Assembly (NCBI RefSeq): GCF_000017305.1
Contig: NC_009664.2
Span: 3,000,001 to 3,032,000, forward strand
Direction: 5' to 3'
Origin: Kineococcus radiotolerans SRS30216 = ATCC BAA-149
GTDB taxonomy: Bacteria; Actinomycetota; Actinomycetes; Actinomycetales; Kineococcaceae
Length of the DNA stretch: 32,000 nucleotides
A program made the position numbers and the translations under genes. Numbering within the stretch: position 1 is the stretch's first letter; each line of letters opens with the position of its first letter. Of the stretch, positions 10,663 through 31,126 are shown piece after piece. Below the pieces are notes generated by a model. That model saw only the letters and a list, made by a program, of their open reading frames with translations. It was not told where the DNA came from and made no database searches.

Positions 10663-13895
<3,233 letters not shown>

Positions 13896-13897
13896 CG

Positions 13898-14788
13898 GTG
13901 CCGGCGGCCACGACCGCCCCGGCACCGCTGCTCGCCCCGGGCCACGGCTCGGGGCTGCTGGACGTGGTCCGCTACCGCTACCTGCTGAAGCTGCTGGTCC
14001 GCAAGGAGATGCGGGTCCGCTACCGCGGGTCCGTCATGGGCCTGCTGTGGTCCTACGTGAAGCCGGGCGTGCAGTTCGCCGTCTTCTACTTCGCGATGGG
14101 GGAGTTCCTCAAGCTCAACGAGAGCGTCCCCAACTTCGCGGTGTACCTGTTCTCCGGCATCGTGGTCATCAACTTCTACACCGAGGCGTTCGGCAACGCG
14201 ACGCGCTCGGTGGTGGGCAACGCGCCGCTGATCAAGAAGATCTTCCTGCCCCGCGAGCTGTTCACGGTGTCCTCGGCGTGGGTGGCCTCGATCCACTTCC
14301 TGCCGCAGCTGGTGGTGCTGCTCGTGGCGTGCCTCGTCACCGGCTGGCGGCCGCTGCCGCAGCAGCTCGCCGGGGCGCTGCTCGGGTTCGCCATCGTCGC
14401 GGTCCTCGCCGTCGGGCTCGGGCTGCTCTTCGGCGCGATCAACGTGCTCTACCGCGACTTCGAGAACATCGTCGACCTGCTGCTGATGATCGTGACCTGG
14501 ACCTCGCCGGTCCTCTACGACTGGCGGAAGGTCGCCGACGCCGTCGGCGGCCCGGACTCCTGGTTCATGACCCTCTACCAGCTGAACCCGGTGACGGCCG
14601 CCGTCGAGCTGTTCCACTGGGCGTTCTGGTACCCCACCGGCGACGTCCGCACCGCCGAGGTCCCCGTCGTCCTGCCGCCGCACCTGCTGTGGTCGGGCCT
14701 GTGGGGCCTCCTCATCGCCCTCGTGCTCCTCGCGCTCGGACAGCTCGTGTTCCGCCGCATCGAGGGCCGTTTCGCGCAGGAGCTGTGA
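13898..14788 (+). CDS. wzm: ABC-2 type polysaccharide export permease (296 aa)
   Basis: RYLLKLLVRKEMRVRYRGSVMGLLWSYVKP...FSGIVVINFYTEAF...PLIKKIFLPRELF is the Wzm/RfbD ABC-2 signature. GTG lies 2 nt after the glfT2 stop. Confidence 0.9.
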   Translation: MPAATTAPAPLLAPGHGSGLLDVVRYRYLLKLLVRKEMRVRYRGSVMGLLWSYVKPGVQFAVFYFAMGEFLKLNESVPNFAVYLFSGIVVINFYTEAFGNATRSVVGNAPLIKKIFLPRELFTVSSAWVASIHFLPQLVVLLVACLVTGWRPLPQQLAGALLGFAIVAVLAVGLGLLFGAINVLYRDFENIVDLLLMIVTWTSPVLYDWRKVADAVGGPDSWFMTLYQLNPVTAAVELFHWAFWYPTGDVRTAEVPVVLPPHLLWSGLWGLLIALVLLALGQLVFRRIEGRFAQEL

Positions 14789-15582
14789 TGAGCGTGACGA
14801 GTTCCCCCGGCACCCCGGCCTCCGACACCCCCCGCCCGGGCACCCCCGCCGCCGGGGCGCCCACCGCGATCGAGGTCCACGGCCTGGTCAAGGACTTCAC
14901 CCTGCGCCACAACCGCTCCCTCAAGGAGCTGGTCATGGCGAAGATCCGCAAGAAGCCGATCTCGGACAGCTTCCGGGCCCTGCACGGGGTCGACCTGGAG
15001 GTCCGCCAGGGCGAGGCCCTCGCCCTGCTCGGCTTCAACGGCTCGGGCAAGTCGACGCTGCTGAAGCTGATCTCCGGGGTCATGCGCCCCGACGAGGGCA
15101 CGATCGGCGTCCGCGGCCGGATCGCCGGGCTCATCGAGGTCGGGGCCGGGTTCCACCCCGACCTGACCGGGCGCGAGAACGTCTACCTCAACGGCGCCAT
15201 CCTCGGGATGGACGAGGCGACGATCAACGCCCGCTTCGACGACATCGTCGCCTTCAGCGAGATCGAGCGCTTCATCGACACCGAGGTGAAGTTCTACTCC
15301 TCGGGGATGTTCCTGCGGCTGGCCTTCGCCGTCGCGGTGCACACCGACCCCGAGGTCTTCCTCATCGACGAGATCCTCTCCGTCGGCGACGAGCCGTTCC
15401 AGAAGAAGTGCCTGGCCCGCATCGAGGAGCTGCGCGCCGAGGGCCGCACGCTGGTCATCGTCAGCCACGACCTCGACATGGTCGCCGGCCTCTGCACCCG
15501 CGGGATCCTCCTGGAGCAGGGCCGCGTCGTCGCCGACGACACCGCCGAGCGGGTCGTGGCCCGGATGCGCGGTCAGGCGTGA
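14788..15582 (+). CDS. wzt: Polysaccharide ABC exporter ATP-binding protein, short form without a C-terminal carbohydrate-binding domain (264 aa)
   Basis: Walker A GFNGSGKSTLLK, GFHPDLTGRENVYLNG, signature YSSGMFLRLAFAVA, Walker B VFLIDEILSVGD and H-loop VSHD. The ATG shares one nt with the wzm stop (TGATG). Confidence 0.9.
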   Translation: MSVTSSPGTPASDTPRPGTPAAGAPTAIEVHGLVKDFTLRHNRSLKELVMAKIRKKPISDSFRALHGVDLEVRQGEALALLGFNGSGKSTLLKLISGVMRPDEGTIGVRGRIAGLIEVGAGFHPDLTGRENVYLNGAILGMDEATINARFDDIVAFSEIERFIDTEVKFYSSGMFLRLAFAVAVHTDPEVFLIDEILSVGDEPFQKKCLARIEELRAEGRTLVIVSHDLDMVAGLCTRGILLEQGRVVADDTAERVVARMRGQA

Positions 15583-17141
15583 CCGCCACGGCGTCGCGCA
15601 CCCGGCGCCCCCCGGCCCCCGGCCCGGCCGTCCCGCGCTCGCGGGCCCTGCTGCCCGCCCTGGGGGTGGGGGCCCTCGCCGCGGGGACCTTCGTCCTGGT
15701 GCACCGGGCGCTGGTCGACGACGCCTACATCACCCTCGCCTACGCGCGGAACCTCGCCCTGCACGGGACGTGGGGCCTGCTCTCCGACGTGGAGTCCAAC
15801 ACCGCCACCTCCCCGCTGTGGGTGCTGCTGCTGGCCGCCGTGACCGCGGTGGTGCGCCGGCCGGTGGTGGCGCTGGGGGTCCTGCACGTCCTCATGGCCG
15901 TCGGCCTCACCCTGTCGCTGACCTCCGCGGCCCGGCGCACCGGGCTGCCCGCGTGGGTGGGTCCCGCCGCGGCCGTGGCGGTGGGGGTCAACCCGCTGCT
16001 GCTGAGCTCCGTCGGCCTGGAGTCGGGCTTCCTCGTCCTGCTGCTGTCGCTGCTGCTGCTGGCCGCCGTCCGCGGCGCCGCGCTGCCGTACGGGCTGGCC
16101 GCGGGCGCGGTCGTGCTGACCCGGATGGACGCCGCCGTCGTCGTCGCCGTCCTCACCCTGCTCACCCCGGCCGTGCTGCGGCGGCTGCACGTGGCCGTCC
16201 CCGCCGCGCTGCTCGTCGTGGTGCCGTGGATGACCTGGAGCTGGTTCCACCTGGGCTCCGCCGTCCCCGACACCGTCGTCATCAAGACGCTGCAGGAGTC
16301 GTGGGAGCAGTACGACGTCCGCAACGGCATGCAGCTCTACGTCGAGGTCTACGGGCTGACCGCGGTCCTGGCGTTCCTGCCGGTGGTGCTCGGCGGGCTG
16401 GGGTGGTTCGTCCTCGCCGCCCTGGGCTGGACCTCGCGCCGCTCGGCCACCGCCCCGCCCAGCGGGCTGCGGGTGTGGCCGTGGCTGGCGGTGGGGGTCG
16501 CCGGCGTGGCGCACTACCTCGCGCTGAGCGTCCTCGGCGTCCCCCCGTACCACTGGTACTACGCCGTCCTCGTGGCGCTGTCGACGGTGGTGGGGGTCGC
16601 CGCCCTCGGCGCGCTCTTCCCCCGGGTCGAGCTGCGCCCCGTCGGCCTCGGGGCGTCGGCGGCCGCGGTCGTCCTCCTCGTGGCCAGCGCCGGGGTCGAC
16701 CTGCGCGCGGGGCTGCCCTGGTCGATCGCGCCCATCCAGACCAACTGGGCCCACCCCGCGCGCTACACCGAGATCGCCCGCGACGTGCAGGCCGTCCTGG
16801 AGCAGCGCGGCGGCCCCCAGCACGTCACCTCGCCCGGCGAGGTCGGCCACCTCGCCTACGTCTGCGACTGCGTCGTGGACTACTTCGCCGACCCGGCCCG
16901 CGTGCAGCCGATGATCGACCAGGTCGAGGCCGAGTCCTCGCCGCTGGGGCGGCGGCTGCTGGAGTGGAACTTCACCCACCGCGACGCGGACGCCGCGCCG
17001 GTCCCGGTGTCGGGGGAGCTCTTCCGCTACGACCGCGGCACCCAGCCGCCCGCGGCCCGGGGTCTGCCGACGTGGCCGATCACCACGACCTGGGACATGG
17101 TGCCCAGCGACATCGTCCTGCAACCGGTGGGTGGCGCGTGA
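15579..17141 (+). CDS. Polytopic membrane protein, candidate GT-C glycosyltransferase (520 aa)
   Basis: After the first TM helix there is a VDDAYITLAYARN motif, a DD-aromatic-I first-loop motif like those of GT-C/Emb-type enzymes. It is followed by about 11 hydrophobic segments and a C-terminal soluble region of roughly 110 aa. GTG 15579 overlaps the wzt stop. Confidence 0.65.
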   Translation: MTATASRTRRPPAPGPAVPRSRALLPALGVGALAAGTFVLVHRALVDDAYITLAYARNLALHGTWGLLSDVESNTATSPLWVLLLAAVTAVVRRPVVALGVLHVLMAVGLTLSLTSAARRTGLPAWVGPAAAVAVGVNPLLLSSVGLESGFLVLLLSLLLLAAVRGAALPYGLAAGAVVLTRMDAAVVVAVLTLLTPAVLRRLHVAVPAALLVVVPWMTWSWFHLGSAVPDTVVIKTLQESWEQYDVRNGMQLYVEVYGLTAVLAFLPVVLGGLGWFVLAALGWTSRRSATAPPSGLRVWPWLAVGVAGVAHYLALSVLGVPPYHWYYAVLVALSTVVGVAALGALFPRVELRPVGLGASAAAVVLLVASAGVDLRAGLPWSIAPIQTNWAHPARYTEIARDVQAVLEQRGGPQHVTSPGEVGHLAYVCDCVVDYFADPARVQPMIDQVEAESSPLGRRLLEWNFTHRDADAAPVPVSGELFRYDRGTQPPAARGLPTWPITTTWDMVPSDIVLQPVGGA

Positions 17142-17668
17142 GCCTGTTCGAGAAGATCGCCGCGGTGGACCTCCGGGTGCTGCGGGGGGTGCAGGGCGGG
17201 GTCCGGTTCCCCGGGGCGGTGCCCGTCGCGACGGGCCTCTCCCACGCCGGGGAGCACGCCGCGGCGTGGATCGGGACCGGGGTCGCGGGCTTCGTCCTGG
17301 ACCGCCGCCGCCGGCGGGAGTGGGCGGTCGCCACGGGCGCCGTCGTCGCCGCGCACGGCGCCTCCGTCGTCCTCAAGCGCGTCGCGCGCCGGCACCGCCC
17401 GCTGGACCACCACGTGCAGGTGCGGGTGGGCACCCCCAGCCGATGGAGCATGCCCAGCTCGCACGCCACGTCGACGACGGCCGCCGCGATCGCCTTCGCG
17501 CCGCTGCTGCCCGCCCCCGCCCGGCCGCTGGTCGTCGCGCTGCCGGGGGCCATGGCGCTGTCCCGGCTCGTGCTGGGCGTCCACTACCCGACCGACGTCA
17601 CCGCGGGCGCGCTGCTCGGCGCGGCGACGGCCGTCGCGGCGCGCCGCGTCGCGGGGAGGACCTCGTGA
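17138..17668 (+). CDS. PAP2-family phosphatase, Rv3807c-like decaprenylphosphoryl-5-phosphoribose phosphatase (176 aa)
   Basis: The three PAP2 motifs are present: KRVARRHRP, PSSHA and SRLVLGVHYPTDV. Its position immediately upstream of the UbiA-type gene matches M. tuberculosis Rv3807c-Rv3806c. Confidence 0.8.
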   Translation: MSLFEKIAAVDLRVLRGVQGGVRFPGAVPVATGLSHAGEHAAAWIGTGVAGFVLDRRRRREWAVATGAVVAAHGASVVLKRVARRHRPLDHHVQVRVGTPSRWSMPSSHATSTTAAAIAFAPLLPAPARPLVVALPGAMALSRLVLGVHYPTDVTAGALLGAATAVAARRVAGRTS

Positions 17669-18567
17669 GCACCCGGGAGCAGACGGTGTCGACCCCCTCC
17701 ACCCGGTCGCCCGCCTGGCTGCGCGCCATGCGCCCGCGGCAGTGGGTGAAGAACGTCCTCGTCCTCGCGCCGGTGTTCCCCGCCGGCCAGCAGGTGGGCC
17801 TCGACACCCTCACCGGGGTCGGGGTCGCCTTCGTGCTGTTCTGCGTGCTGTCGAGCTCGATCTACCTGATCAACGACGCCAAGGACGTCGAGGCCGACCG
17901 CGCGCACCCGCGCAAGCGGTTCCGGCCCATCGCGGCGGGGGAGCTGCCGGTCCGCACCGCCGTCGTCCTCGCCGTGGTCCTGGCCGCGGTCGCGCTGGGC
18001 GCGGGCACGCTCTGGCAGCCGATGCTGGGGGTGGTGCTCGGGGTCTACTTCGTCATCCAGCTCGCCTACTGCTTCGGCCTCAAGCACGAACCCGTCCTCG
18101 AGCTGGCCTGCGTCGCCTCCGGGTTCCTGCTGCGCATGCTCGCCGGCGGCACCGCCGGCGACATCCCCCTCTCGGGCTGGTTCCTGCTGACCACGGCGTT
18201 CGGCTCGCTGTTCATGGCCGCCGGCAAGCGCTACGGGGAGGCCCGCCGCGGGGAGCTCACCGGGGAGCCCGTGCGCCGGGTGGTGCAGCGGTACACCCCG
18301 ACCTACCTGCGCTTCGTGTGGACCCTCGCCGCGACGGTCGTCGTCACCACGTACGCGTTGTGGGCGATCGAGGTCCTCGTCGCCCAGACCGGCACGAGCC
18401 TGGCGACCCTGACCATCGTCCCCTTCGTCCTCGCCGTGCTGCGCTACGCGGTGGACGTGGACAGCGGGAACGCCGAGGAGCCCGAGGAGATTGCCCTGCA
18501 CGACCGGGTGCTGCTCGGCCTGGCGGGCCTGTGGTGCGCCTCCCTGCTGCTGGCGGTGTGGCTGTGA
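17665..18567 (+). CDS. ubiA: UbiA-family decaprenyl-phosphate 5-phosphoribosyltransferase (DPPR synthase), Rv3806c-like (300 aa)
   Basis: LRAMRPRQWVKNVLVLA, YLINDAKDVEADRAHPRKRFRPIAAG, LAYCFGLKHEPVLE, FGSLFMAAGKRYGE, YLRFVWTL and LRYAVDVDSGNAEEPEEIALHDRVL closely parallel Rv3806c. Confidence 0.88.
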   Translation: MSTREQTVSTPSTRSPAWLRAMRPRQWVKNVLVLAPVFPAGQQVGLDTLTGVGVAFVLFCVLSSSIYLINDAKDVEADRAHPRKRFRPIAAGELPVRTAVVLAVVLAAVALGAGTLWQPMLGVVLGVYFVIQLAYCFGLKHEPVLELACVASGFLLRMLAGGTAGDIPLSGWFLLTTAFGSLFMAAGKRYGEARRGELTGEPVRRVVQRYTPTYLRFVWTLAATVVVTTYALWAIEVLVAQTGTSLATLTIVPFVLAVLRYAVDVDSGNAEEPEEIALHDRVLLGLAGLWCASLLLAVWL

Positions 18568-19007
18568 GCGCCCCGGTGCGGACCCTGCTGGCCTCCGAGC
18601 GCGCGGGGGAGGTCGTGCGGTTCCTCGTCTCCGGCGGGATCGCCTACCTCGCCGACCTGGTGGTCTTCAACGTCCTGCTCCTCGCCGGGGTCGGCTCGGT
18701 CTGGTCCAAGGTCGTCTCCAGCGTCATCGCGATCTTCATCGCGTTCCTGGGCAGCCGGTACTACACCTGGCGCGACCGCCGCAGCGAGCACCCGGGCCGC
18801 GAGTACGCCATGTTCTTCCTGTTCTCCGCGATCGCCGCCGGGCTGCAGCTGCTGTGCCTGGCGATCACGCACTACGGGTTCGGCTGGACCTCGGCCCTGG
18901 CCGACAACCTCTCCGGCAACGTCGTCGGGATGGCCATCGCCATGGTGTTCCGCTTCCTGACCTTCCGGACGTTCGTCTTCCCGGACCGCTCCGCGACCAG
19001 TGCGTGA
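18564..19007 (+). CDS. gtrA: GtrA-family small membrane protein, Rv3789-like (147 aa)
   Basis: VVRFLVSGGIAYLADLVVFNVL...FLGSRYYTWRD...VFRFLTFRTFVF has four TM segments and the typical GtrA pattern. GTG overlaps the ubiA stop. Confidence 0.85.
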   Translation: MSAPVRTLLASERAGEVVRFLVSGGIAYLADLVVFNVLLLAGVGSVWSKVVSSVIAIFIAFLGSRYYTWRDRRSEHPGREYAMFFLFSAIAAGLQLLCLAITHYGFGWTSALADNLSGNVVGMAIAMVFRFLTFRTFVFPDRSATSA

Positions 19008-20127
19008 CCCCAGGACCCTGATCCCCGTCCTGCTGGGGATCGTGCTCGCGGTCGTCGTCGTCCGCAGCGGTGTCGGGCAGGCGTCCTGGGAGGTCGGGTA
19101 CGACCTCTCCGTCTACCGCGACGGCGCCCGGGACCTGCTGGCCGGCCGTGACCTCTACGGGCGCGAGACCTACCGCGGGCACTGGTTCGTGTACCCGCCG
19201 TTCGCGGCGATCCTCTTCGTGCCCCTGCTCCTGCTGCCCGCGGCGGTGGACCTCGTCCTGTGGGACGCGGTGCTGGTCGCGGTGGCGACGTGGGGGTGCT
19301 GGCGGGTCCTGCGCTCCGTCGCCGGCCCCGGGTGGTGGCTGGGGACGGGGATCGCGTTCGTCCTGCTCAGCGACCCGTTCCGCGAGGCGCTGGTGCTGGG
19401 GCAGATCAGCCCCCTCGTCGTGCTGGGGCTCGTGCTCGGCTGCCTCTACGGCGGGCGCGGGGGGGCCCTGCTCGCCGCGCTGTCGGGGGCGGTGAAGGTG
19501 ACCCCGGCCCTGGTGATCGCCTCGCTGCTGAACCGGCGGGCCCGGGGGTGGTTCGCGCTGCCCGTGGTCGTCGTGGGGGCGGTGGTGACGCTGCTCGGGG
19601 CCCTGGTGGCCCCGCGCTCGGCGGTGTCCTACTTCGGGGGCCTGCTCTGGGACCCCGACCGCGTCGCGGAGCCGCGGACGACGACGAACAACTCGCTGGC
19701 GGGGGCGTTCGCGCACGCGGGGACGTCGTCCTCGCTGGCCTCGGCGCTGGGGGTGGTGTGCGCGGTCCCGCTGCTGGTCCTCGTCGTCGTCGTCGCCCGG
19801 CGCTGCGACTGGCTGGACCGCTCCGCGCGGCTGCGCTTCGGGCTGCTCGTCTCCGTCGTGACCTGCCTGGTGTCGCCGGTGACGTGGTCGCACCACGCGC
19901 TGGCCGCCCCGATCGCGGTGGTGGTGCTGCTGGCCGGGCGGCGCCACGGCCCCCTGCTGGTGCTGGCGGGTCTCCCGTGGCTGCTGCCGGTGCTGCACTG
20001 GGGGCCGGTGCTCGCCCAGACCCGGCCGCTGTCGCTGCTGGTGCTCGTCGTCCTGCTCAGCGCGCGCCCGTCGCGCACCGCGCGGGCGCCGCGCTCCGAG
20101 CTGGACGGGGCCGCCCGGGAGGTCTGA
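19000..20127 (+). CDS. DUF2029 / GT87-type polyprenyl-phosphate-sugar dependent membrane glycosyltransferase (375 aa)
   Basis: DLSVYRDGARDLLAGRDLYGRE...WFVYPPFAAILFVPL and KVTPALV are characteristic of the GT87 family (PimE/AftC/Mpt-like). GTG 19000 overlaps the gtrA end by 8 nt. Confidence 0.8.
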   Translation: MRDPRTLIPVLLGIVLAVVVVRSGVGQASWEVGYDLSVYRDGARDLLAGRDLYGRETYRGHWFVYPPFAAILFVPLLLLPAAVDLVLWDAVLVAVATWGCWRVLRSVAGPGWWLGTGIAFVLLSDPFREALVLGQISPLVVLGLVLGCLYGGRGGALLAALSGAVKVTPALVIASLLNRRARGWFALPVVVVGAVVTLLGALVAPRSAVSYFGGLLWDPDRVAEPRTTTNNSLAGAFAHAGTSSSLASALGVVCAVPLLVLVVVVARRCDWLDRSARLRFGLLVSVVTCLVSPVTWSHHALAAPIAVVVLLAGRRHGPLLVLAGLPWLLPVLHWGPVLAQTRPLSLLVLVVLLSARPSRTARAPRSELDGAAREV

Positions 20128-20140
20128 GCCGCGGGCGGCC

Positions 20141-20177
20141 GGCGGCACCGGGCGGGGTCACCCGCGCCGGTGCCGCC
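20141..20177. terminator. Bidirectional GC hairpin between convergent operons
   Basis: ggcggcaccgggcggg-gtca-cccgcgccggtgccgcc forms a roughly 16-bp stem with one bulge and a 4-nt loop. It sits in the 61-bp gap between the stops at 20127 (+) and 20189 (-). Confidence 0.5.
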
Positions 20178-20188
20178 GCGCCACCGGC

Positions 20189-22183
20189 TCAGGCGCGGGC
20201 GACCTTCCCGGTCCGGGGGTCGTAGGACAGCGTGCCGCCCTGGAAGGTCTGGGTCAGGGTGGCCCCGCGCCACTGCTCGCCGGCGGTGGGCATCCCCAGG
20301 GGGCCGTTCTCCCACCCCTGCGCGGCCCAGGTGTCGAGGATCCCGCCGCGCACGGCGTGGGCGCCGGTCGCGCCCGACCAGTAGATCGAGCCGCCCTGGA
20401 ACCTCGTGAACCACCCGCGCCCGCCGGGGAGGGGGGTGTCGCTGCTGGTGGGGAAGCCGAGGCCGTTCTCCCAGCCCAGGGCGGCCCACTCCTGCCGGAT
20501 CGCCCCGCGCAGGGCCTGGGCGCCGGTGGAGGGCGACCAGTAGATCGAGCCGTTCTGGAAGTGGGTGTAGTACCCGACGCCGTTGGGGGTGCGGGTGTCG
20601 CTGGTGGTGGGGAAGCCGAGGCCGTTCTCCCAGCCCAGGGCGGCCCACTTCTGCTGGATCGCGCCGCGGACGGCCTGGGCGCCGGTGGAGGGCGACCAGT
20701 AGATCGAGCCGTTCTGGAAGTGGTTGTAGTACCCGGCGCCGTTGGGGGTGCGGGTGTCGCCGGTGGTGGGCAGCCCCATCCCGTTCTCCCAGCCCAGCGC
20801 CGCCCACCGGCTGCGGATCGCGCCGCGGACGTCGTGGGCGCCGGTGGCGGGGGAGGCGTAGATCGAGCCCCCGGCGAAGTGCTGGTAGGCGGCCCGGCCG
20901 TCGGGGGTGGTGAGCTCCGCGGAGGCCGCCGCCCCCAGGGGGCCGTTCACCCCGCCGAGGGCGCCGTGGGCGAGCTGCACGGCGCTGACGAGCGCGAAGT
21001 AGTCCGAGCGCAGCCCGCCCAGCTGCCGCAGCTTCGTGCCGGTGACCGCGACGGTGCCGTTGGTGCAGACGAGGGTCGCGTCCTTGACCCGGCCGCCGAA
21101 GTCGCCGCGCCCGTCGCGGCCCTTCACGACGATCCCGGTGGCCGCGCCGCCGGGCGCGCAGCCGGCGTCGAAGCTCGCCGCGCGCACGGTGGTCGTCCAG
21201 GCGGCGACGCTGTCGCCGGGGGCGGTGCGCCCGGGCCCGGAGAACGGGTCCTCCTTGGCCACCAGGTACGGCTTGGACCCCGCGACGGTCCAGCCGCCGT
21301 TGGAGGAGGAGAACTGGGTGAACGCGACCTTGCCCTCGTGGCTGCGGATCTCCCCGGCGGTCGCGGCGATGGCCGCGTTCGTCGACGCGGGCGTCGACCA
21401 GGTCGTCGCGCCGGCCGCGTCCCGGACCTCCGCGCCCCGGTAGACCTGGCAGGCGGTCGTGTCGCAGATGTCGGTCTGGGCCTGCGGGTTCAGCACGGCC
21501 ATCGCGTAGCTGCGGGCGGCCACCGACTGGGCCTTGAGCGCTTCCGCGTTCCAGGAGGCGGGGGACTCGGCGGGGACGACCCCGCGCAGGTAGGTCTCCA
21601 GCGGGACGTCGTTGACGACGGTGAGCCTGGGCCCGGTGACGATGCGGACGACGCCGTCGTAGCGGACGGAGGTCCCGTCGCCCTTCTGCAGCAGGACCCC
21701 GTCCGGGCCGCTGAGGGTGACCGTCCCGCCCCAGGTCTCGTTCCAGGCGCCGTCGACGGTGCCGGTCAGCCCGGACCCGCTGGGGGCCACGACCAGGCGC
21801 TGCCCGGCCTCGACCTTCCGGCCGCTGGAGCTGATGGTCAGCGGGCTGCCCGAGGGGGCGCGCACGGCGACGGCGGCGTTGGCGAACGCCGTCAGCCCCA
21901 CCCGCAGCGTCCGGTCCGGTTGGTTCCCCACCGAGGTGCCGGGGTAGTAGAAGTCCAGGATCGTGCGGTAGCCCTGGCCGGCGACGGCGCGCGACTGGGC
22001 CCCCCACTGCGACATGCCGATCCCGTGCCCGAACCCGTGCCCGACGACGGTGAAGGAACCCCCGGTGGCCGGGCGGACCTCGTCGGCGGAGGCGGGCACC
22101 GCGGTCAGCGTCCCCGCCGTCAGGGCCAGCGCCGTGCCGGCCACCAGGCCGGTCACGAGGCGGGAGATCCTGGTGCGTGTCAT
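20189..22183 (-). CDS. Secreted SpoIID/LytB-domain protein (lytic transglycosylase/amidase enhancer type) with 5 C-terminal LGFP repeats (664 aa)
   Basis: Signal peptide ending ASA/DE. SpoIID motifs GHGFGHGIGMSQWGA, LETYLRGVVPAESP, EALKAQSVAARSYA, CDTTACQVYRG and FSSSNGG. LGFP repeats follow. GGAGGA lies 4 nt before the ATG at 22183. Confidence 0.9.
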   Translation of the reverse strand: MTRTRISRLVTGLVAGTALALTAGTLTAVPASADEVRPATGGSFTVVGHGFGHGIGMSQWGAQSRAVAGQGYRTILDFYYPGTSVGNQPDRTLRVGLTAFANAAVAVRAPSGSPLTISSSGRKVEAGQRLVVAPSGSGLTGTVDGAWNETWGGTVTLSGPDGVLLQKGDGTSVRYDGVVRIVTGPRLTVVNDVPLETYLRGVVPAESPASWNAEALKAQSVAARSYAMAVLNPQAQTDICDTTACQVYRGAEVRDAAGATTWSTPASTNAAIAATAGEIRSHEGKVAFTQFSSSNGGWTVAGSKPYLVAKEDPFSGPGRTAPGDSVAAWTTTVRAASFDAGCAPGGAATGIVVKGRDGRGDFGGRVKDATLVCTNGTVAVTGTKLRQLGGLRSDYFALVSAVQLAHGALGGVNGPLGAAASAELTTPDGRAAYQHFAGGSIYASPATGAHDVRGAIRSRWAALGWENGMGLPTTGDTRTPNGAGYYNHFQNGSIYWSPSTGAQAVRGAIQQKWAALGWENGLGFPTTSDTRTPNGVGYYTHFQNGSIYWSPSTGAQALRGAIRQEWAALGWENGLGFPTSSDTPLPGGRGWFTRFQGGSIYWSGATGAHAVRGGILDTWAAQGWENGPLGMPTAGEQWRGATLTQTFQGGTLSYDPRTGKVARA
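20192..20944 (-). repeat. In-frame tandem array encoding 5 LGFP repeats (about 159-bp period)
   Basis: The protein repeat GWENGLGFPT..F.NGSIYWSPSTGAQA.RGAI...WAAL recurs five times. Units 20436-20594 and 20595-20753 differ at only about 8 of 159 nt by hand alignment. Confidence 0.85.
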
Positions 22184-22208
22184 GTCGTCCTCCGGGTGCT
22201 TCCGCGGA

Positions 22209-23432
22209 TCAGTGGTTCAGCGAGATCGAGGTCGTGCGGCGGGTCGCGTCCCAGGTCAGCGAACCGCCCTGGAAGTCCAGGCGCAAGCCCCCCGGGACGG
22301 GGCGCTCGTCGGCGACGGGGAAGCCCAGCGGGCCGTTCTCCCAGCCGGTCGCGGCCCACGTCTCGCGCAGCGCGCCGCGGACGGCGTGCGCGCCGGTCGC
22401 GGGGGACCAGTAGACCGACCCGCCCTCGAAGTGGGTGTAGGCGCCGGGCTTGCTGGGGGTCCGGCGGTCGCCGGTGGTGGGGAACCCCAGGCCGTTCTCC
22501 CAGCCGAGGGCGGCCCACCGGTCGCGGATCGCCCCGCGCAGCTCGTGGGCCCCCGTCGCGGGGGACCAGTAGACCGAGCCGCCCTGGAAGTGGTTGTAGG
22601 CCCCCGCCCGCCGCGGGGTGCGCAGTTCGTCGGTCAGGGGGACCCCGAGGGCGGCGGGGCCGCCGAGTTCGCCGTAGCGGCCGGCGATGGCGCCGTGCAC
22701 CTCGCGCACCGGGGTCGTGGGGGAGGCGTAGACGCTGCCGTGGCGGTAGTCGCGCCGGGAGACCCCCGCCGAGGACGTGGTGCGCCGGGCGCCCACGTCG
22801 CCGCCGAGGACGGAGCGTTCCCCGCCGAGGGCGATCCAGTGCCCGGTGAGGGGGTCGGCCGTCCCGGTCCACCACGACGTCTCGCGGGCGGCGCCGGAGA
22901 AGGTGAGCGACAGGTGGACGTGGTCGGTGTGCGGGTCGGGACCGGTGTAGGGCTGCCACCCGGCGGCGGGGTCGTAGGCCTTCCACACCGCGCGGTCCCA
23001 GATGACGTACATGACCCCGAGGCGGCGGGCGTTCGCGGCGGCGTTGCCGTTCGCGTCGGGGGCGAGCAGCCAGGTGGTGAACTCCCGGGCGAGGGCGGCC
23101 TCCGCGGGCACGGCGGCGTCGAGCATCCAGTCCAGCGCGCGGCCGTCGTGGTGCTCGGAGGTGGGGGGGCCGCCGACGGGGCAGGCGCGGGCGGTCCCCA
23201 CGTCCTGCGGGCCGTAGGCGTCGCGGATCAGCCGGGCGACGGCGAGGGTCCCCGGTTGCGGTGCGGCGCAGGAGATCGGCGCCTGGTACCGGGGGGCGAG
23301 GGCGTCGACCTCGGCGGGCAGCCCGCCCGGGGCGCGGGGGGCGGCCGAGGCGGCGGGCCCGACCAGGCCGGCCAGCGCCGCGACGAGCAGGCCCGCCACC
23401 ACCGGCGCCGCGCCGGGACCCCGCCGCCTCAC
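22209..23432 (-). CDS. Secreted LAS/M15-like zinc peptidase (VanY-type motif) with 4 C-terminal LGFP repeats (407 aa)
   Basis: Signal peptide MRRRGPGAAPVVAGLLVAALAGLVGPAASAA. SEHHDGRALD fits the SxHxxGxAxD metal-binding motif of D-Ala-D-Ala carboxypeptidase-like LAS enzymes, and HTDHVHLS supplies an HxH. LGFP repeats follow. GAGGAAG lies before the GTG at 23432. Confidence 0.75.
   Translation of the reverse strand: MRRRGPGAAPVVAGLLVAALAGLVGPAASAAPRAPGGLPAEVDALAPRYQAPISCAAPQPGTLAVARLIRDAYGPQDVGTARACPVGGPPTSEHHDGRALDWMLDAAVPAEAALAREFTTWLLAPDANGNAAANARRLGVMYVIWDRAVWKAYDPAAGWQPYTGPDPHTDHVHLSLTFSGAARETSWWTGTADPLTGHWIALGGERSVLGGDVGARRTTSSAGVSRRDYRHGSVYASPTTPVREVHGAIAGRYGELGGPAALGVPLTDELRTPRRAGAYNHFQGGSVYWSPATGAHELRGAIRDRWAALGWENGLGFPTTGDRRTPSKPGAYTHFEGGSVYWSPATGAHAVRGALRETWAATGWENGPLGFPVADERPVPGGLRLDFQGGSLTWDATRRTTSISLNH
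22212..22826 (-). repeat. In-frame tandem array encoding 4 LGFP repeats
   Basis: Repeats such as GWENGLGFPTTGDRRTPSKPGAYTHFEGGSVYWSPATGAHAVRGALRETWAAT. The DNA is visibly related to the arrays at 20192-20944 and 23437-24195. Confidence 0.8.
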
Positions 23433-23433
23433 G

Positions 23434-25398
23434 TCACTTCCTCTTCGCGGTGGTCTGGCCGGTGGACCGGTTCCAGGTGAGGGTCCCGCCCTCGAACTCC
23501 ATCCGCAGCCCGCCGTCGACGGCGTACTCGTCCTTGGTGGGGAAACCCAGCCAGGAGTTCTCCCAGCCCATCGACGCCCAGGTCTCGCGGAACGCCCCGC
23601 GGACGGCGTGGGCCCCGGTGGCGGGGGACCAGTAGACCGACCCGCCCTGGAAGTGGTTGTACCAGCCCTTCCCGCCGGGGGTGGGGGTGTCGTCGATCGT
23701 GGGGAAACCCATGCCGCGTTCCCAGCCGAGCGCGGCCCAGCGGTCCCGGATGGCGCCGGTCGTCCAGCGCGCCCCGGTCGCGGCGGAGTAGTAGATGGAC
23801 CCGCCCTGGAAGTGGGTGTACCAGCCGCCGGCGGCGCGGGAGTCGCCGGTCACCGGGAAACCGGCGGGGCCGCCCTCCCAGCCCATCGACGCCCACTTGG
23901 TCCGGATCGCCCCGCGCACGTCGCGGGCCCCGGTGGCGGGGCTCCAGTAGATGGAACCGTTCTGGAAGTGGTTGTAGAAACCGCCCTTGGCCCGGGAGTC
24001 GTCGGTGGTGGGGAAACCGAGGCCGTTCTCCCAGCCGAGCCGGCCCCAGGCGGCGAGGATCTCCCCGCGCACGGTGTGGGCGCCGGTCACCCGGTTCCAG
24101 TAGATCGCCCCGCCGGTGTAGAACCGGTAGGAACCGTCACCGCGGGGGGTGTCGAGTTCCGCGGTCGTCGGGGTGCCGAACGCGGCGGCCCCGCCGACGG
24201 CGGCGTACTTGGCGTCGATCGCGGTGCCCGTGGCGGCGTTCATCAGTTGCGCGACCCGGGCGCGGATGGTGTCCATCCGGGTGAAACCGACGTTGCCCGG
24301 GCAGGCGGTGAAACCGACGTCCCGGTGGGCGTTGATCGTGCGCAGCTTCACGGTGCTGCCCGCGGCGTAGCGGGCCGTCCCGCCGCCGGCGGAGGTGAGG
24401 TACGCGGCGCCGTCGGCGGGCAGGCCGTACATCGACAGCTTCCAGGCGATGACCCGGGCGACGGATTCGAGGCACTCGGCGCTGGGGGCGACGGAGGTGT
24501 AGTCGCCCATCATCGAGACCCCGAAGGTGTCGGCGTTGAAACCCCCGGCGTGCGCGCCGACGACGGGCTGGGAGATCCCCCCGGCGCGCCCCTCCCAGAT
24601 CCCGCCGAAGCGGTCGACGACGAAGTTGTAGCCGAGGTCGGCCCAGCCCAGGGACACCGTGTGGTAGCGGTACATGCCGCGGATGACCGAGGGGACCTCG
24701 GCCTGGCTGTAGGTCCCGCCGTCGGCGGTGTGGTGGACGACGACGGCCTTGATGGTGGTGCTGTAGCTCGCCCCGCCCTGGCGCAGCGACTCGTCGGCGC
24801 CCCAGGCGGCGCGGGAGCGGATCGTCGGCTGCGGGACGGCCCGGGGGCTGGCCTTGGTGCCGGAGGGGGAGGCGAGGGTGGTGCGGGTGTCGAGCGCGGA
24901 GCTCTCGCCGGCGTCGACGAGCTGCAGGTGGGCGTCGGCGACGTCGGTGCGCGGCAGGCGGACCTGGACGGTGGCGGTCCCGAGGGCGCCGACCCACAGC
25001 GGGTCGGAGGCGGTGACGGAGCGGCGGCCCTCGGCGGTGTCCGGGTCGGGTTCGGAGTCGTTGAGGGGCAGGTCGCTCCACGCCGTCCAGTCCGCGCCGG
25101 CGCGGCGCACGCGCACGGAGACGGTGTCGGTGGAGGCGCCGGAGGGGAACGTCACCCCGACCATGTGCCCGCCCTCGACGTCCACCGCGACGACCGCGAG
25201 GTCGCCGGTGGAGAGCAGGGTGGCGGAGCGCTGCTGGCCCAGGGCGAAGGCGCGGGTCGAGCCGGCGACCTGCAGGGCCGCGGGGGCCAGGGCGCTCGCG
25301 GGGGCCCCCGCGCACAGCAGGGCCGCGCCGGTGAGGCCACCGGCGGCACCGCCGGTGAGCAGGGCGCGACGGGACACGGGGGTGGTGACGGACCGCAT
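23434..25398 (-). CDS. Tat-exported N-acetylmuramoyl-L-alanine amidase (Amidase_2/PGRP type) with 5 C-terminal LGFP repeats (654 aa)
   Basis: Twin-arginine signal MRSVTTPVSRRALLTGGAAGG...APASALA. Amidase_2 core AVVVHHTADGGTYSQAEVPSVIRGMYRYHTVSLGWADLGYNFVVDRFGGIWEGRAGG..GAHAGGFNADTFGVSMMG. LGFP repeats follow. ATG at 25398 with GAAGGAGGAA at 25408-25417. The longer ORF-track start at 25494 was rejected. Confidence 0.9.
   Translation of the reverse strand: MRSVTTPVSRRALLTGGAAGGLTGAALLCAGAPASALAPAALQVAGSTRAFALGQQRSATLLSTGDLAVVAVDVEGGHMVGVTFPSGASTDTVSVRVRRAGADWTAWSDLPLNDSEPDPDTAEGRRSVTASDPLWVGALGTATVQVRLPRTDVADAHLQLVDAGESSALDTRTTLASPSGTKASPRAVPQPTIRSRAAWGADESLRQGGASYSTTIKAVVVHHTADGGTYSQAEVPSVIRGMYRYHTVSLGWADLGYNFVVDRFGGIWEGRAGGISQPVVGAHAGGFNADTFGVSMMGDYTSVAPSAECLESVARVIAWKLSMYGLPADGAAYLTSAGGGTARYAAGSTVKLRTINAHRDVGFTACPGNVGFTRMDTIRARVAQLMNAATGTAIDAKYAAVGGAAAFGTPTTAELDTPRGDGSYRFYTGGAIYWNRVTGAHTVRGEILAAWGRLGWENGLGFPTTDDSRAKGGFYNHFQNGSIYWSPATGARDVRGAIRTKWASMGWEGGPAGFPVTGDSRAAGGWYTHFQGGSIYYSAATGARWTTGAIRDRWAALGWERGMGFPTIDDTPTPGGKGWYNHFQGGSVYWSPATGAHAVRGAFRETWASMGWENSWLGFPTKDEYAVDGGLRMEFEGGTLTWNRSTGQTTAKRK
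23437..24195 (-). repeat. In-frame tandem array encoding 5 LGFP repeats
   Basis: Repeats such as GWERGMGFPTIDDTPTPGGKGWYNHFQGGSVYWSPATGAHAVRGAFRETWASM, with 51-53 aa per unit. Confidence 0.8.
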
Positions 25399-25660
25399 CT
25401 GGGCTCGTTCCTCCTTCTGGCGTGGGGCGGCGAGCGCCCCGTGGGTCACACCCACACGGGTGAACGCTCGGCTCCGGCATCGGCTGACGGACACCGGACC
25501 TTGAGCGTGTCGCTACCGTCCCGTGCGCCTTCCGTCACGCAAAGTAGGTGAGGATGCCTGAGGTGTACAAGGTGCCCGAGTGCACAACTGGGTAACACCT
25601 CTGTGTTCACTCGTGCACTCTACGTCACAATCGTCCATCGCACCCCAGTTCTGAGTCGCG
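25399..25660 (-). promoter_or_regulatory. Promoter plus long structured 5' leader of the LGFP-hydrolase operon (class unassigned)
   Basis: This is the only visibly lower-GC stretch in the window and has no coding potential. It contains a possible -10 TAGAGT (minus strand, 25622-25617), a cluster of GTGNAC repeats, competing short hairpins at 25419-25466, and a stem that ends 6 nt upstream of the SD box. Confidence 0.35.
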
Positions 25661-25693
25661 CCCGCGAACCCCGGGGAACCCCGGGAACGACGA

Positions 25694-25725
25694 GACCCCC
25701 CGATCCGCAGCGGGTTCGGAGGGTC
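25694..25725 (-). terminator. Hairpin downstream of the DUF1501 gene
   Basis: The minus-strand RNA GACCCUCCGA-(12 nt)-UCGGGGGGUC gives a 10-bp stem including one G-U pair. It starts 46 nt after the stop at 25772 and is followed by UCGUCGUU. Confidence 0.4.
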
Positions 25726-25771
25726 CGTCCAGAACGCTCTCAGGTCGCGGTCAGGTCACCGCCGGTGCCCG

Positions 25772-27049
25772 TCACCGCGAACGGACGACCCCCAGCGGGG
25801 CGCCGGAGAAACCGGGGAAGATCGCCGACAGCGACCCCGCCCCGCACCGCTTCTGCAGCACCTCGCCGATGACCGAGCGGTAGTCCGTCGTGCCGGCGAG
25901 GTCGCCGTCGACGAGTCGGTCCGCGCCCAGACCGGGCCACACCCCGTGCACGCGGCCCCCCACGACCCCGCCGCCCAGCAGCAGGACGGCGTTGCCGTGC
26001 CCGTGGTCCAGCCCGCCGGAGGCGTTCTCCCCGACCCGGCGGCCGAACTCCGAGAGGGTCACCAGGGTCGTGGAGGCGAAGGACCCGCCGAGGTCGGTGG
26101 CGAAGGCGGCCAGCGCCGAGGACAGCTCGGTCAGCTTGTCGCGCATCCAGCCGCCGTCGACCCGGCCCAGCCCCGCGTGCATGTCCCAGTCGCCGTAGTC
26201 CAGGGCGATGACCTGCACCGGGGCGCCGGACTTCTTCAGGACCGCGGCCTCGGCCAGGGCCCGGCCGAGGTCGGAGTCGGGGTAGACCGCCCCGTTCGCC
26301 GGGCCCGAGGCGGTGCCCCGCAGCCCCGCCACGTCCTCCATCGCCGTCAGCAGCGTCGAGGCGGGCTGGGCGACCTCGGGACGGGCGCCGGTGTGCATGC
26401 GGCGCAGCGCGGCGTGCCAGGTGGGGCGGTCGTCCCCGGGGCCGATGAGGCTGAAACCGTCCAGCGACGTCATCGTCGTCTCCTGGGCGGGACCGGCGAA
26501 CGCGCGCGCCGGGGTGTTCGAGATGCCCACGGCGTTGAGCACCGAACCGGTGCCCAGCGACCCCAGGGTCCGGTCGATCCAGCCCGTGCGCACCGACGAA
26601 CCCGGCGCGGCGAGTTCCATCCGCTCCATCGCCGCGAAGTGCGAGCGGGTCGGCTCGGCCTGCCCGACGGCGTGCACGACCCCGAAGGTCCCGTTGCGCC
26701 ACAGCGGCATCAGCGGGGCCATCGCCGGGTGCAGGCCGAACGTCTGGTCCAGGCCGAGCAGGGTCGAGCGCGGGACGGCGATGTTCGGCCGCGCCGCGTA
26801 GTACCCGGCGTCCCCGCCGGGGACCACCGCGGACAGCCCGTCGAAACCGCCGTGCAGGCTCAGCACCACCAGGGTCTCGCCGTTCCAGCCCGTCCCCGCG
26901 AACGAGACCTGCGTCGAGACGTCGCCCACGGCGTAGGTGGTGACGCCGGCGGCGGCCGCGGCCAGCGCCGCGCGCAGCACGCTGCGGCGCGAGACCAGCT
27001 TCGAGCCTTCGTCGCAGCCGCAGCGGGCGTCGTCCTTGAACTTCGACAC
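25772..27049 (-). CDS. DUF1501-family protein (sulfatase/phosphatase-like fold), Tat signal (425 aa)
   Basis: VSKFKDDARCGCDEGSKLVSRRSVLRAALAAAAAG is the Cys-containing N-terminus plus twin-arginine motif typical of DUF1501. LSLHGGFDGLS, DWDMH, SEFGRRVGENASGGLDHGHGN and the C-terminal FPG are also present. GGAGGA lies 8 nt before the GTG at 27049, directly after the upstream stop. Confidence 0.85.
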   Translation of the reverse strand: MSKFKDDARCGCDEGSKLVSRRSVLRAALAAAAAGVTTYAVGDVSTQVSFAGTGWNGETLVVLSLHGGFDGLSAVVPGGDAGYYAARPNIAVPRSTLLGLDQTFGLHPAMAPLMPLWRNGTFGVVHAVGQAEPTRSHFAAMERMELAAPGSSVRTGWIDRTLGSLGTGSVLNAVGISNTPARAFAGPAQETTMTSLDGFSLIGPGDDRPTWHAALRRMHTGARPEVAQPASTLLTAMEDVAGLRGTASGPANGAVYPDSDLGRALAEAAVLKKSGAPVQVIALDYGDWDMHAGLGRVDGGWMRDKLTELSSALAAFATDLGGSFASTTLVTLSEFGRRVGENASGGLDHGHGNAVLLLGGGVVGGRVHGVWPGLGADRLVDGDLAGTTDYRSVIGEVLQKRCGAGSLSAIFPGFSGAPLGVVRSR

Positions 27050-27063
27050 GAGAGCAGTCCTCC

Positions 27064-30209: not shown

Positions 30210-30971
30210 TCAGAGGGGGAGCTTGCGGAACACGGGCGCGGGCACGTGGCGCAGCGCCGACATGACCCAGCGCATCGGCTCGGGCGCCCAGACGGTCTCC
30301 TTGCCGCTGCGCACCGCGTCCACGGCCACCTCCGCCACCTGCTCCGCCGACACCGACAGGGGGGCCGCCTTGAGCCCCTCGGTCATCTTGGTGGTGACGA
30401 AGCCGGGACGCACGACGACCACGCGCACCCCGCCCGGGCGCAGGGCCTCGCGCAGGCCGGTGAAGAAGGCGTCGAAGCCGGCCTTGGAGGAGCCGTAGAC
30501 GAAGTTGGAGCGCCGGGCCCGCTCGCCGGCGACGCTGGACAGCGCCACCAGGACCCCGTGGCCCTGCTGCTGCAGCCGCGCGGCCAGGTGCACCCCGAGG
30601 TTCACCGGGGCGGTGTAGTTGACCGTCGCGACCCGCACGGCCTCGGAGGCGTCCTGCCAGGACACCTCGTTGTCCCCGAGGACGCCGAAGGCCAGCACCG
30701 TGACGTCCACGTCGCCGAAGGGCCCCTCGAAGCACTCCTGCACGACGCGGGCGTGCCCCTCGAGGTCGGTGGCCTCGAAGTCCACCGCGCGCACCTCGTG
30801 CCCGCGCCGGTGCAGCCGGTCCACCGCGGCCTCCCGGCGCGCGCCGGGGCGGGCCGCCAGGGTCACCCGCAGCGGGCGCTCGGGGCTGAGGCGCTCGACG
30901 ATGGCGAGGCCGATGTCGGAGGTGCCCCCGAGGAGGAGGACGGAGCGCGGGTTCCCGAGGGCGTCGATCAC
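30210..30971 (-). CDS. dprE2: Decaprenylphosphoryl-2-keto-beta-D-erythro-pentose reductase (SDR), DprE2/Rv3791-like (253 aa)
   Basis: VIDALGNPRSVLLLGGTSDIGLAI, VDVTVLAFGVLGD, NYTAPV, SSVAGERARRSNFVYGSSKAG, VRVVVVRPGFV and VWAPEPMRWVMSALRHVPAPVFRKLPL are collinear with M. tuberculosis DprE2 (254 aa). The GTG at 30971 was chosen on that alignment. The ORF-track start at 30989 (TTG) adds 6 aa. Confidence 0.9.
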   Translation of the reverse strand: MIDALGNPRSVLLLGGTSDIGLAIVERLSPERPLRVTLAARPGARREAAVDRLHRRGHEVRAVDFEATDLEGHARVVQECFEGPFGDVDVTVLAFGVLGDNEVSWQDASEAVRVATVNYTAPVNLGVHLAARLQQQGHGVLVALSSVAGERARRSNFVYGSSKAGFDAFFTGLREALRPGGVRVVVVRPGFVTTKMTEGLKAAPLSVSAEQVAEVAVDAVRSGKETVWAPEPMRWVMSALRHVPAPVFRKLPL

Positions 30972-31126
30972 AGGGCTCGACACTAGCAACGGCGGCCGCG
31001 GGCCCCGGACGCGACGACGCGCGCCCCGGGATCGTCACCCGACGGTGACCTGGTCCGCGGGGGACCCCCGCGCCCGTCGTAGCCTCCGGGGGTGATCCCC
31101 CCGCGCCGGCCCCCGCACCGCGCCCG

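Follow-up and report, generated by a model that had tools for sequence, protein, structure and literature searches.

A probable operon for three LGFP-repeat peptidoglycan hydrolases of different families beside arabinogalactan-type wall-glycan genes in Kineococcus radiotolerans

Why should genes for three different peptidoglycan hydrolases, all ending in the same LGFP repeat module, stand one behind the other next to a wall-glycan operon? This question is raised by a locus of Kineococcus radiotolerans SRS30216 (= ATCC BAA-149; contig NC_009664.2), where they occupy positions 20189..25398 on the minus strand of a window of 32,000 nucleotides (the whole stretch analyzed, contig positions 3,000,001 to 3,032,000; coordinates below count from its first letter). 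Autolysins need tight control—the amidase Ami3 (Rv3811) is toxic on accumulation in mycobacteria—and their targeting in arabinogalactan-covered actinobacteria is poorly understood. As read from their sequences, the three genes, here called A, B, and C, encode distinct catalytic modules with intact active-site residues, from families whose characterized members cut the bond between N-acetylmuramic acid (MurNAc) and L-Ala, the link that joins L-Ala to D-isoglutamate (D-iGlu), and the glycan strand, respectively. The original prediction for this DNA, which had assigned differing modules to the glycan, the MurNAc-L-Ala bond, and the stem peptide, is borne out in this respect. The trio is a conserved but fairly ordinary autolysin operon, each protein being a new member of a known family. 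With moderate confidence, we read it as a chromosomal operon whose three exported hydrolases act in sequence on the cell's own wall, held there by LGFP stalks.

Three hydrolase genes in one compact, probable operon

Six-frame open reading frames (ORFs) and a frame analysis based on the GC content of third codon positions (GC3) agree on genes A, B, and C, which are consecutive and separated by 1 nt (A/B) and 25 nt (B/C). Gene A (23434..25398, ABS05340.1, 654 aa) starts with the ATG at 25398, about 9 nt past GAAGGAGGA, and stops with the TGA at 23436-23434. The single base 23433 separates it from gene B (22209..23432, ABS05341.1, 407 aa), whose GTG start at 23432 has AAGAGGAAG immediately upstream and whose stop is the TGA at 22211-22209. 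A spacer of 25 nt with GGAGGA leads to gene C (20189..22183, ABS05342.1, 664 aa), which runs from the ATG at 22183 to the TGA at 20191-20189. The protein lengths equal those of the GenBank models; the product of gene A is an exact GenBank match, and that of gene C is 100% identical to a K. radiotolerans SpoIID/LytB protein. Each gene has its own Shine-Dalgarno sequence, and each product holds a signal peptide at its N-end and LGFP repeats at its C-end. The ORF coordinates and junctions, together with the three starts, agree with the layout described in the original prediction, and the motifs quoted there (SRRALL, HHTAD, GYNFVV, SEHHDGRALD, HTDHVH, GVVPAESP, and CQVY) were all located in the translations.

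The single strand, the short gaps, a sole hairpin placed after gene C, and the adjacency kept in three other species indicate that A-B-C most likely form one co-transcribed unit. A scan for consensus promoters and terminators, with a terminator model that needs a T-run, found nothing, as is expected at a GC content that is uniformly about 75%.

Gene A encodes a secreted N-acetylmuramoyl-L-alanine amidase of the Rv3811/Ami3 type, assigned from Pfam, the GenBank match, and an alignment with peptidoglycan recognition proteins (PGRPs). Its Amidase_2 domain (PF01510; residues 214-369, 24292..24759 on the minus strand) reaches 60.8 bits (cutoff 26), and the protein aligns with PGRP structures at E 1e-19 and with T7 lysozyme too. 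Aligned to the catalytic PGRPs, the zinc site is complete, with H222 (VVHH, within VVHHTAD at 220-226) and H358-x7-C366 (AHRDVGFTAC), and the catalytic tyrosine is Y257 in GYNF (GYNFVV at 256-261); the counterparts in T7 lysozyme are H17, Y46, H122, and C130. The cysteine of the zinc site sets catalytic apart from non-catalytic PGRPs. With a score above the cutoff and an intact His/His/Cys site, the Amidase_2 module proposed earlier holds, and gene A is predicted to free stem peptides from MurNAc. The precomputed Pfam record of the exact protein adds PF27503 (Rv3811_N), and the whole architecture—Rv3811_N, Amidase_2, and five LGFP repeats (394-654)—is that of Ami3/Rv3811. At the N-terminus, the twin-arginine motif SRRALL, which had been noted before, is present at 9-14, followed by a hydrophobic stretch and by ASALA at 34-38; in the form SRRxL[LIV] it is kept in all six Kineococcus A orthologues examined. 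From this we infer a signal peptide like those of the twin-arginine translocation (Tat) pathway.

Gene B encodes a signal peptide, a zinc peptidase domain of the VldE/MT3 family, and four LGFP repeats, as judged from PF26571, profile comparison, and Foldseek searches with an AlphaFold2 (AF2) model. The catalytic domain (approximately residues 36-190, 22863..23327 on the minus strand) holds SEHHDGRALD at 92-101 and HTDHVH at 168-173. An hmmscan of the N-terminal domain (22830-23432) gave no Pfam or NCBIfam match, M15 families included, even at E<=10, but this is a false negative because the Pfam set scanned lacked PF26571 (VldE), as it also lacked PF27503. PF26571 is present in the precomputed annotation of the exact protein and in 120 of 120 homologues among the matches listed, their number being at least 120. 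A single-sequence phmmer search against the PDB returned a marginal VldE match (E 0.11), and a profile built from 37 homologues of the domain matched the VldE structures 9flh/9fln at E 1.9e-6, with both motifs covered. The AF2 model has a predicted local distance difference test (pLDDT) value of 89, and VldE structures take the first five places in Foldseek (probability 1.0, TM-target 0.76-0.80); below them, as weaker matches, come hedgehog-N, the Streptomyces Zn DD-peptidase 1lbu, LdcB, and MepA.

In pneumococci, VldE works as a zinc L,D-endopeptidase, and its target in cross-linked stems is the L-Ala-D-iGlu bond of the acceptor strand; H301, D308, and H375 are its zinc ligands, each of these and of H370, D372, and H373 is essential, and R294 has been proposed as transition-state stabilizer (PMC11667670). 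The residues R294, H301, D308, H370, D372, H373, and H375 correspond to R82, H94, D101, H168, D170, H171, and H173 of gene B, which are invariant or nearly so in the 37 homologues, with the exception of D170, kept in most. Gene B thus shares the LAS fold, the essential residues, and the transition-state Arg with S. pneumoniae VldE (Spr1875; 9flh-9fln). It differs from it in its identity of only about 23-27%, in its wall module, which is a C-terminal LGFP array instead of N-terminal LysM, in the larger size of the actinobacterial domain, and in its substrate, which would be a wall with meso-diaminopimelic acid (meso-DAP). The four-zinc reservoir state and the preference for the acceptor strand are traits of the pneumococcal enzyme, and the latter is known from it only. 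Two cysteines, C55 and C84, are nearly invariant in the actinobacterial family and are without counterpart in the account of VldE (PMC11667670).

The authors of that study liken the active site to that of M15 peptidases, assign the fold to LAS, and equate the domain with the 'MT3' motif, noted first in the tape-measure protein of phage TM4 (PMC11667670). By sequence and model, gene B belongs to the VldE/MT3 family (PF26571) with a LAS fold, its likeness to M15 being at the level of superfamily and active site only, and it would cut L-Ala-D-iGlu in cross-linked stems. The earlier call of a LAS/M15-type zinc peptidase is therefore right as to the LAS fold and the SxHxxGxAxD motif, but not as to a Pfam M15 family, VldE/MT3 taking its place. 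Missing profile support for the M15-like call had been named as a result that would speak against the proposal; technically such support is indeed missing, yet this is misleading.

Gene C encodes a signal peptide, a permuted SpoIID/LytB domain, and five LGFP repeats, supported by Pfam, TIGR02669, PDB alignment, and an AF2 model. It scores 93.2 bits with SpoIID (PF08486; cutoff 23) and 177.2 bits with TIGR02669 (cutoff 83.3), and stays under the cutoff of the sporulation equivalog TIGR02870 (spore_II_D; 115.5 vs. 234.75 bits). Against the SpoIID structures 4rwr, 5i1t, and 5txu it aligns in two stretches whose order is swapped: residues 186-314 match the N-terminal catalytic part of SpoIID, and residues 39-89 match its C-terminal GHGxGMSQ part. 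The domain (residues 34-400, 20984-22084 on the minus strand) therefore begins with the GHGxGMSQxGA segment, and the segment with the catalytic Glu follows about 150 residues on, with a beta-sandwich insert between them. This swapped order is found in 43 of 43 SpoIID-LGFP homologues having both motifs. In the AF2 model (pLDDT 90), the sole significant PDB match in Foldseek is 5i1t, with a probability of 1.0 and a sequential TM-score of only 0.32-0.41, a combination that fits a circular permutation with a beta-sandwich insert.

In the 5txu alignment, E206 of gene C, which lies in GVVPAESP (201-208), falls on E101 of Clostridioides difficile SpoIID; as E173 of the trimmed query, it shows no variation among 37 homologues. 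E101 is the catalytic glutamate of that enzyme, which is inactive on peptidoglycan until an amidase yields denuded strands (PMC6221140); a review (PMC7985256) interchanges the activities of SpoIID and SpoIIP, and PMC6221140 is followed here instead. With PF08486 and TIGR02669 above their cutoffs and the Glu kept, the SpoIID/LytB module foreseen for gene C is present, but the domain is permuted. Its sequence marks the product of gene C as a homologue of the SpoIID/LytB-type lytic transglycosylases, in a permuted non-sporulation variant.

A common LGFP array beside wall-glycan genes

LGFP (PF08310) covers 14 stretches in the three proteins, 5+4+5 in A, B, and C (E 3e-89, 1e-64, and 2e-94), which is the total of arrays of 4-5 repeats that had been counted before. 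A custom repeat hidden Markov model (HMM) finds the same 14 units of 48-54 aa, with B1 degenerate. The arrays lie on the minus strand at 23437..24219 in gene A (five repeats), 22227..22850 in gene B (four repeats, residues 195-402, B1 weak), and 20195..20980 in gene C (five repeats, residues 402-663), with a repeat period of 159 nt in the DNA. They are homologous position by position, the first repeats A1/B2/C1 being alike, as are the terminal repeats A5/B4/C5, and the internal repeats of the three genes being 57-83% identical; this argues that the LGFP array has been inherited or transferred as a block. Within gene C, repeats C2 and C3 (the pair 20458-20576/20617-20735) are 95% identical in DNA, compared with 64-82% for other pairs, which points to a recent tandem duplication or gene conversion.

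The array matches the C. glutamicum PS1/MytA structures 6swz and 6sx4 at E 3e-36. MytA has the same repeat family, also as an array of five, but carries it on a mycoloyltransferase, whereas the Kineococcus arrays sit on wall hydrolases. In the older literature, 'cell wall anchoring' was proposed for LGFP (PMC3314691), and the five LGFP domains of MytA are reported to form a stalk and to pull down peptidoglycan-arabinogalactan (PMC11299179). By analogy, the arrays of genes A, B, and C probably bind the peptidoglycan-arabinogalactan complex, which fits the fixed place of the operon beside arabinogalactan biosynthesis genes. The view that LGFP belongs mainly to Corynebacteriales did not survive, since the repeat is abundant in Kineosporiales and Geodermatophilaceae and is present also in Myxococcota and cyanobacteria. 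Arrays that share 45-51% identity with the one in gene C are found in Archangium and Hyalangium (Myxococcota), joined to Amidase_2, M23, or SH3, and in one cyanobacterial metagenome-assembled genome (MAG).

The arabinogalactan-type wall-glycan operon, delimited by Pfam and frame analysis, converges on the trio from the plus strand (10702..20127), in the order Glf, GlfT2, ABC-2 permease and ATPase, a membrane protein, PAP2, UbiA (of the decaprenyl-phosphoribose (DPPR)-synthase type), GtrA, and a glycosyltransferase of family 87 (GT87); the ABC genes are Wzm/Wzt-like. Upstream of Glf, from 4285 on the same strand, there are genes for GT4, DUF6541, a double GT2, and an acyltransferase. AftA and Emb genes, which other Kineococcus genomes have beside the hydrolases, are absent from the window. 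The adjacency to a wall-glycan operon, as stated in the original prediction, is hence confirmed by Pfam for a glf/glfT2/ubiA cluster, and so is the parallel with Rv3811. In the mycobacterial arabinogalactan region, Rv3811 adjoins glf, and it is linked to the arabinogalactan genes Rv3805c-Rv3809c. As far as gene families tell, the neighboring genes amount to the arabinogalactan toolkit of mycobacteria, here in an organism outside Mycobacteriales. By its title, Yokota 1993 (cited in PMC7601052) reports arabinogalactan for the Kineococcus wall itself.

Gene A shares its build of Rv3811_N, Amidase_2, and LGFP with M. tuberculosis Ami3/Rv3811 (Csp) and M. smegmatis Ami3, and is likewise linked to a glf/glfT2/PAP2/ubiA cluster. 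Unlike them, it heads a three-gene operon, and does so in Kineosporiales, in a host not known to have mycolic acids; in mycobacteria, no Ami3 gene is known to have genes of the VldE or SpoIID type next in line. It is a known theme that several hydrolases have one anchor in common and are encoded beside wall-polymer genes. The pneumococcal choline-binding proteins LytA/B/C and the C. difficile CWB2 Cwp proteins by the PSII locus follow the same concept, with enzymes of differing bond specificity on a common repeat module by wall-polymer genes. However, the anchor and the enzyme set differ from those of the Kineococcus genes, which form one compact operon.

Conservation of the trio and rival explanations

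The trio of amidase, VldE, and SpoIID genes, all with LGFP, is also present in K. rhizosphaerae, K. rubinsiae, and K. sp. SYSU DK003, with gaps of -4 to 54 nt and a protein identity to DK003 of 75-81%. The four species share both flanks, DUF1800-DUF1501 on one side and GT87-GtrA-UbiA-PAP2 on the other. A second Kineococcus clade (K. gynurae, K. terrestris, DK004, and K. xinjiangensis) has amidase-LGFP, VldE-LGFP, and a glycoside hydrolase of family 43 (GH43) with LGFP in a row; with GH43 in place of SpoIID there, the three genes of the trio need not go together. GH43 proteins with four LGFP repeats are encoded at loci L002 (11187-13061), L005 (11204-13087; K. terrestris), and L008 (9228-10928) of the set described below. 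In K. terrestris, Emb-type and AftA arabinosyltransferase genes adjoin GH43-LGFP, which, from its family, may be an arabinan- or galactan-trimming enzyme on the same tether. In K. gynurae and K. terrestris, SpoIID-LGFP is separate, beside AftA or Emb and GT87. In Blastococcus, a gene for a protein O-mannosyltransferase (PMT) is followed by amidase-LGFP and SpoIID-LGFP, which overlap by 4 nt.

A genome scan anchored on VldE yielded at least 593 loci, of which 80 species loci were kept, and fusions and adjacencies were counted in these with a GC3-based ORF caller and tblastn. Amidase_2 and SpoIID are joined in one ORF in 10 of the 80 loci, from Phycicoccus, Terrabacter, Ornithinibacter, and related MAGs, with a VldE gene within about 2 kb, and are adjacent as separate genes in another 4. 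The fusion loci (L040, L049, L053, L054, L057, L064, L067, L073, L077, and L084) hold ORFs of about 1000-1300 aa with an Rv3811-like Amidase_2. Pfam confirms the fusion of Phycicoccus jejuensis (L057:2799-6065), with Amidase_2 at 247-406, SpoIID at 611-710, and FG-GAP repeats, and likewise three consecutive genes in a Mycobacteriales MAG (L075). The VldE proteins of the fusion loci have PG_binding_1 instead of LGFP, with five such domains at L057. Since LGFP occurs in none of these fused or adjacent Amidase_2-SpoIID loci of the VldE-anchored set, the link between amidase and SpoIID, and in part VldE, is older and wider than its LGFP version, and the anchor is interchangeable. The fusions support, at the level of sequence, a 'Rosetta-stone' link of the amidase to SpoIID.

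These observations bear on how the three enzymes may work. In the preferred reading, a VldE-type enzyme (B) would unlink cross-linked stems, an Ami3-type enzyme (A) would strip stem peptides off the glycan, and a SpoIID-type enzyme (C) would then degrade the denuded strands, acting last because SpoIID cannot cut peptide-bearing glycan. The sequence of action would be as in the sporulation pair SpoIIP/SpoIID, the homologous C-terminal stalk of 4-5 LGFP repeats would keep each enzyme on the cell's own wall, and the relay would serve to turn over the wall, to split septa, or to separate cell clusters. Its main comparative support comes from the Amidase_2-SpoIID fusions and overlaps. Several findings weigh against it. 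The third gene of the second clade is GH43-LGFP, with SpoIID-LGFP about 7 kb off on the other strand; the Blastococcus pair comes without VldE; and in Rhodococcus sp. X156, SpoIID-LGFP is on its own. Many other enzymes (GH25, YkuD, M23, and deacetylase) also carry LGFP. The specificity of VldE was determined with pneumococcal peptides of the Lys type rather than with walls containing meso-DAP. As for the anchor, its presence in Myxococcota, cyanobacteria, and the Intrasporangiaceae loci of Knoellia and Terrabacter argues against an arabinogalactan-only ligand, and arabinogalactan as the exclusive LGFP ligand was downgraded for this reason; production of arabinogalactan is not known to us from Myxococcota or cyanobacteria. 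The ligand may be peptidoglycan rather than the arabinogalactan of the adjacent operon.

The variable third gene, the solitary SpoIID-LGFP, and the pair without VldE are also what would be expected if the three enzymes were mere neighbors with a common anchor and independent roles in growth, division, and turnover, their clustering reflecting shared regulation or the descent of LGFP. Most of the 80 VldE loci, moreover, have no amidase or SpoIID nearby. On the other hand, Amidase_2::SpoIID fusion ORFs in 10 species loci, an adjacency or overlap that recurs in several families, and the need of SpoIID for amidase-denuded glycan, which gives a mechanistic reason for the link, make independence seem rather unlikely. 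A use as bacteriolytic weapons against competing actinobacteria, with LGFP recognizing the wall of the prey, would agree with the export of all three proteins and with the Amidase_2-LGFP and M23-LGFP proteins of the predatory Myxococcota Archangium and Hyalangium. It is improbable nonetheless, given the fixed syntenic place by the cell's own arabinogalactan genes in four species, the housekeeping or developmental nature of the nearest characterized relatives (the autolysins Ami3, VldE, and SpoIID), and a neighborhood without immunity or secretion-system genes. Least probable by far is the lysis cassette of a prophage or other mobile element. Mycobacteriophage endolysins do use Amidase_2 and occasionally LGFP (PMC3314691), and a phage protein is where the MT3 motif was originally noticed. 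However, the window holds no phage, integrase, or holin genes, its GC content is uniform, the chromosomal synteny is kept across species, and each protein has its own signal peptide, with no reliance on a holin; this reading was rejected on gene context.

A further proposal extends the preferred reading of a sequential autolysin operon, and is offered tentatively, as one that is possible but doubtful. Gene A, the permuted SpoIID, and VldE, genes for which are adjacent or fused in several orders, would be an ancient actinobacterial counterpart, working as a coupled and sequential unit, of the SpoIID-SpoIIM-SpoIIP (DMP) machine of Bacillus and Clostridioides, re-tethered via LGFP to the arabinogalactan-bearing mature wall in Kineococcus and Geodermatophilaceae. 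Both systems follow the same logic of an amidase/endopeptidase combined with a SpoIID that needs denuded glycan. In contrast to the DMP machine, the trio is without a SpoIIM or SpoIIP homologue, its amidase is an Amidase_2 and its endopeptidase a separate LAS enzyme, its SpoIID is permuted with a beta-sandwich insert, and the host forms no endospores. The Kineococcus enzymes are, in addition, soluble, exported, and LGFP-anchored, whereas those of the DMP machine are membrane-anchored. If the proposal were true, only peptidoglycan that is old and decorated with glycan would be degraded, for instance when daughter cells or cell clusters separate, and the mycobacterial Ami3 would be a remnant of such a module.

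Flanking DNA and significance

The leader of the operon, its presumed promoter region of 341 nt (25399..25739, minus strand), was examined in an alignment of four Kineococcus species, where about 200 nt are strongly conserved, far beyond the neutral expectation for intergenic DNA. By eye, it contains direct repeats of the GTnAC type (GTGAC/GTGAA/GTGACC/GTGTTAC) about 10 nt apart, followed by a promoter-like pair TTGTAC-18-TACTTT; these elements could be a response-regulator site and a promoter. For ami3 of M. tuberculosis, an MtrA-associated promoter element has been reported (PMC10480492). Two RNA candidates were discarded for the leader. A riboswitch of the ydaO or another type upstream of the hydrolases was rejected for want of an Rfam match, as no family was found in the whole window at gathering thresholds, nor in the leader at E<=1; a structured-RNA leader finds no support, since the covariation term of RNAalifold is unfavorable, with a compensatory change in only one pair. 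At the other end, a GC-rich hairpin (20124..20192; fold -65.9 kcal/mol, z -5.2) spans the convergent stops of gene C and the GT87 gene, and is likely a bidirectional terminator without a U-tract.

Directly upstream of the trio, a DUF1800-DUF1501 pair (25772-28536, minus strand) is found in all four genomes of the radiotolerans clade; in DK003 it stands between two paralogous amidase-VldE pairs. The N-terminus of the DUF1501 protein is Tat-like (SRRSVLRAALAAAAAG). Past this pair, there are a weak PMT_2-like gene of the GT-C class (28631-30202) and a short-chain dehydrogenase gene (30210-30989, minus strand), whose product could be DprE2-like to judge from its position and family. The PMT gene of Blastococcus (L088:3844-5349) lies directly upstream of amidase-LGFP, a place that in K. 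gynurae, K. terrestris, and DK004 is taken by an unannotated gene of GT-C size. Mannosylation by Pmt has been reported to stabilize Ami3 in mycobacteria (PMC12735335).

A three-enzyme LGFP operon had been considered undescribed, which stands in part. A literature search of limited scope found no paper on the Ami3-VldE-SpoIID module, on its fusions, or on the permuted actinobacterial SpoIID. However, the genes are annotated at domain level in GenBank, under the public names 'N-acetylmuramoyl-L-alanine amidase / LGFP repeat protein', 'LGFP repeat-containing protein', and 'SpoIID/LytB domain-containing protein', and the link between amidase and SpoIID is wider than this operon.

If the reading of a sequential autolysin operon is true, Ami3/Rv3811 would have as its natural partners a lytic transglycosylase of the SpoIID type and an endopeptidase of the VldE type. 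SpoIID would then have a role beyond endospore formers, the fusions supporting a relay from amidase to SpoIID in non-sporulating bacteria, and K. radiotolerans, a non-pathogen with three different cargo enzymes on LGFP arrays, would become a test system for LGFP binding. The VldE family, characterized only in 2024, is extended to hundreds of actinobacterial genomes.

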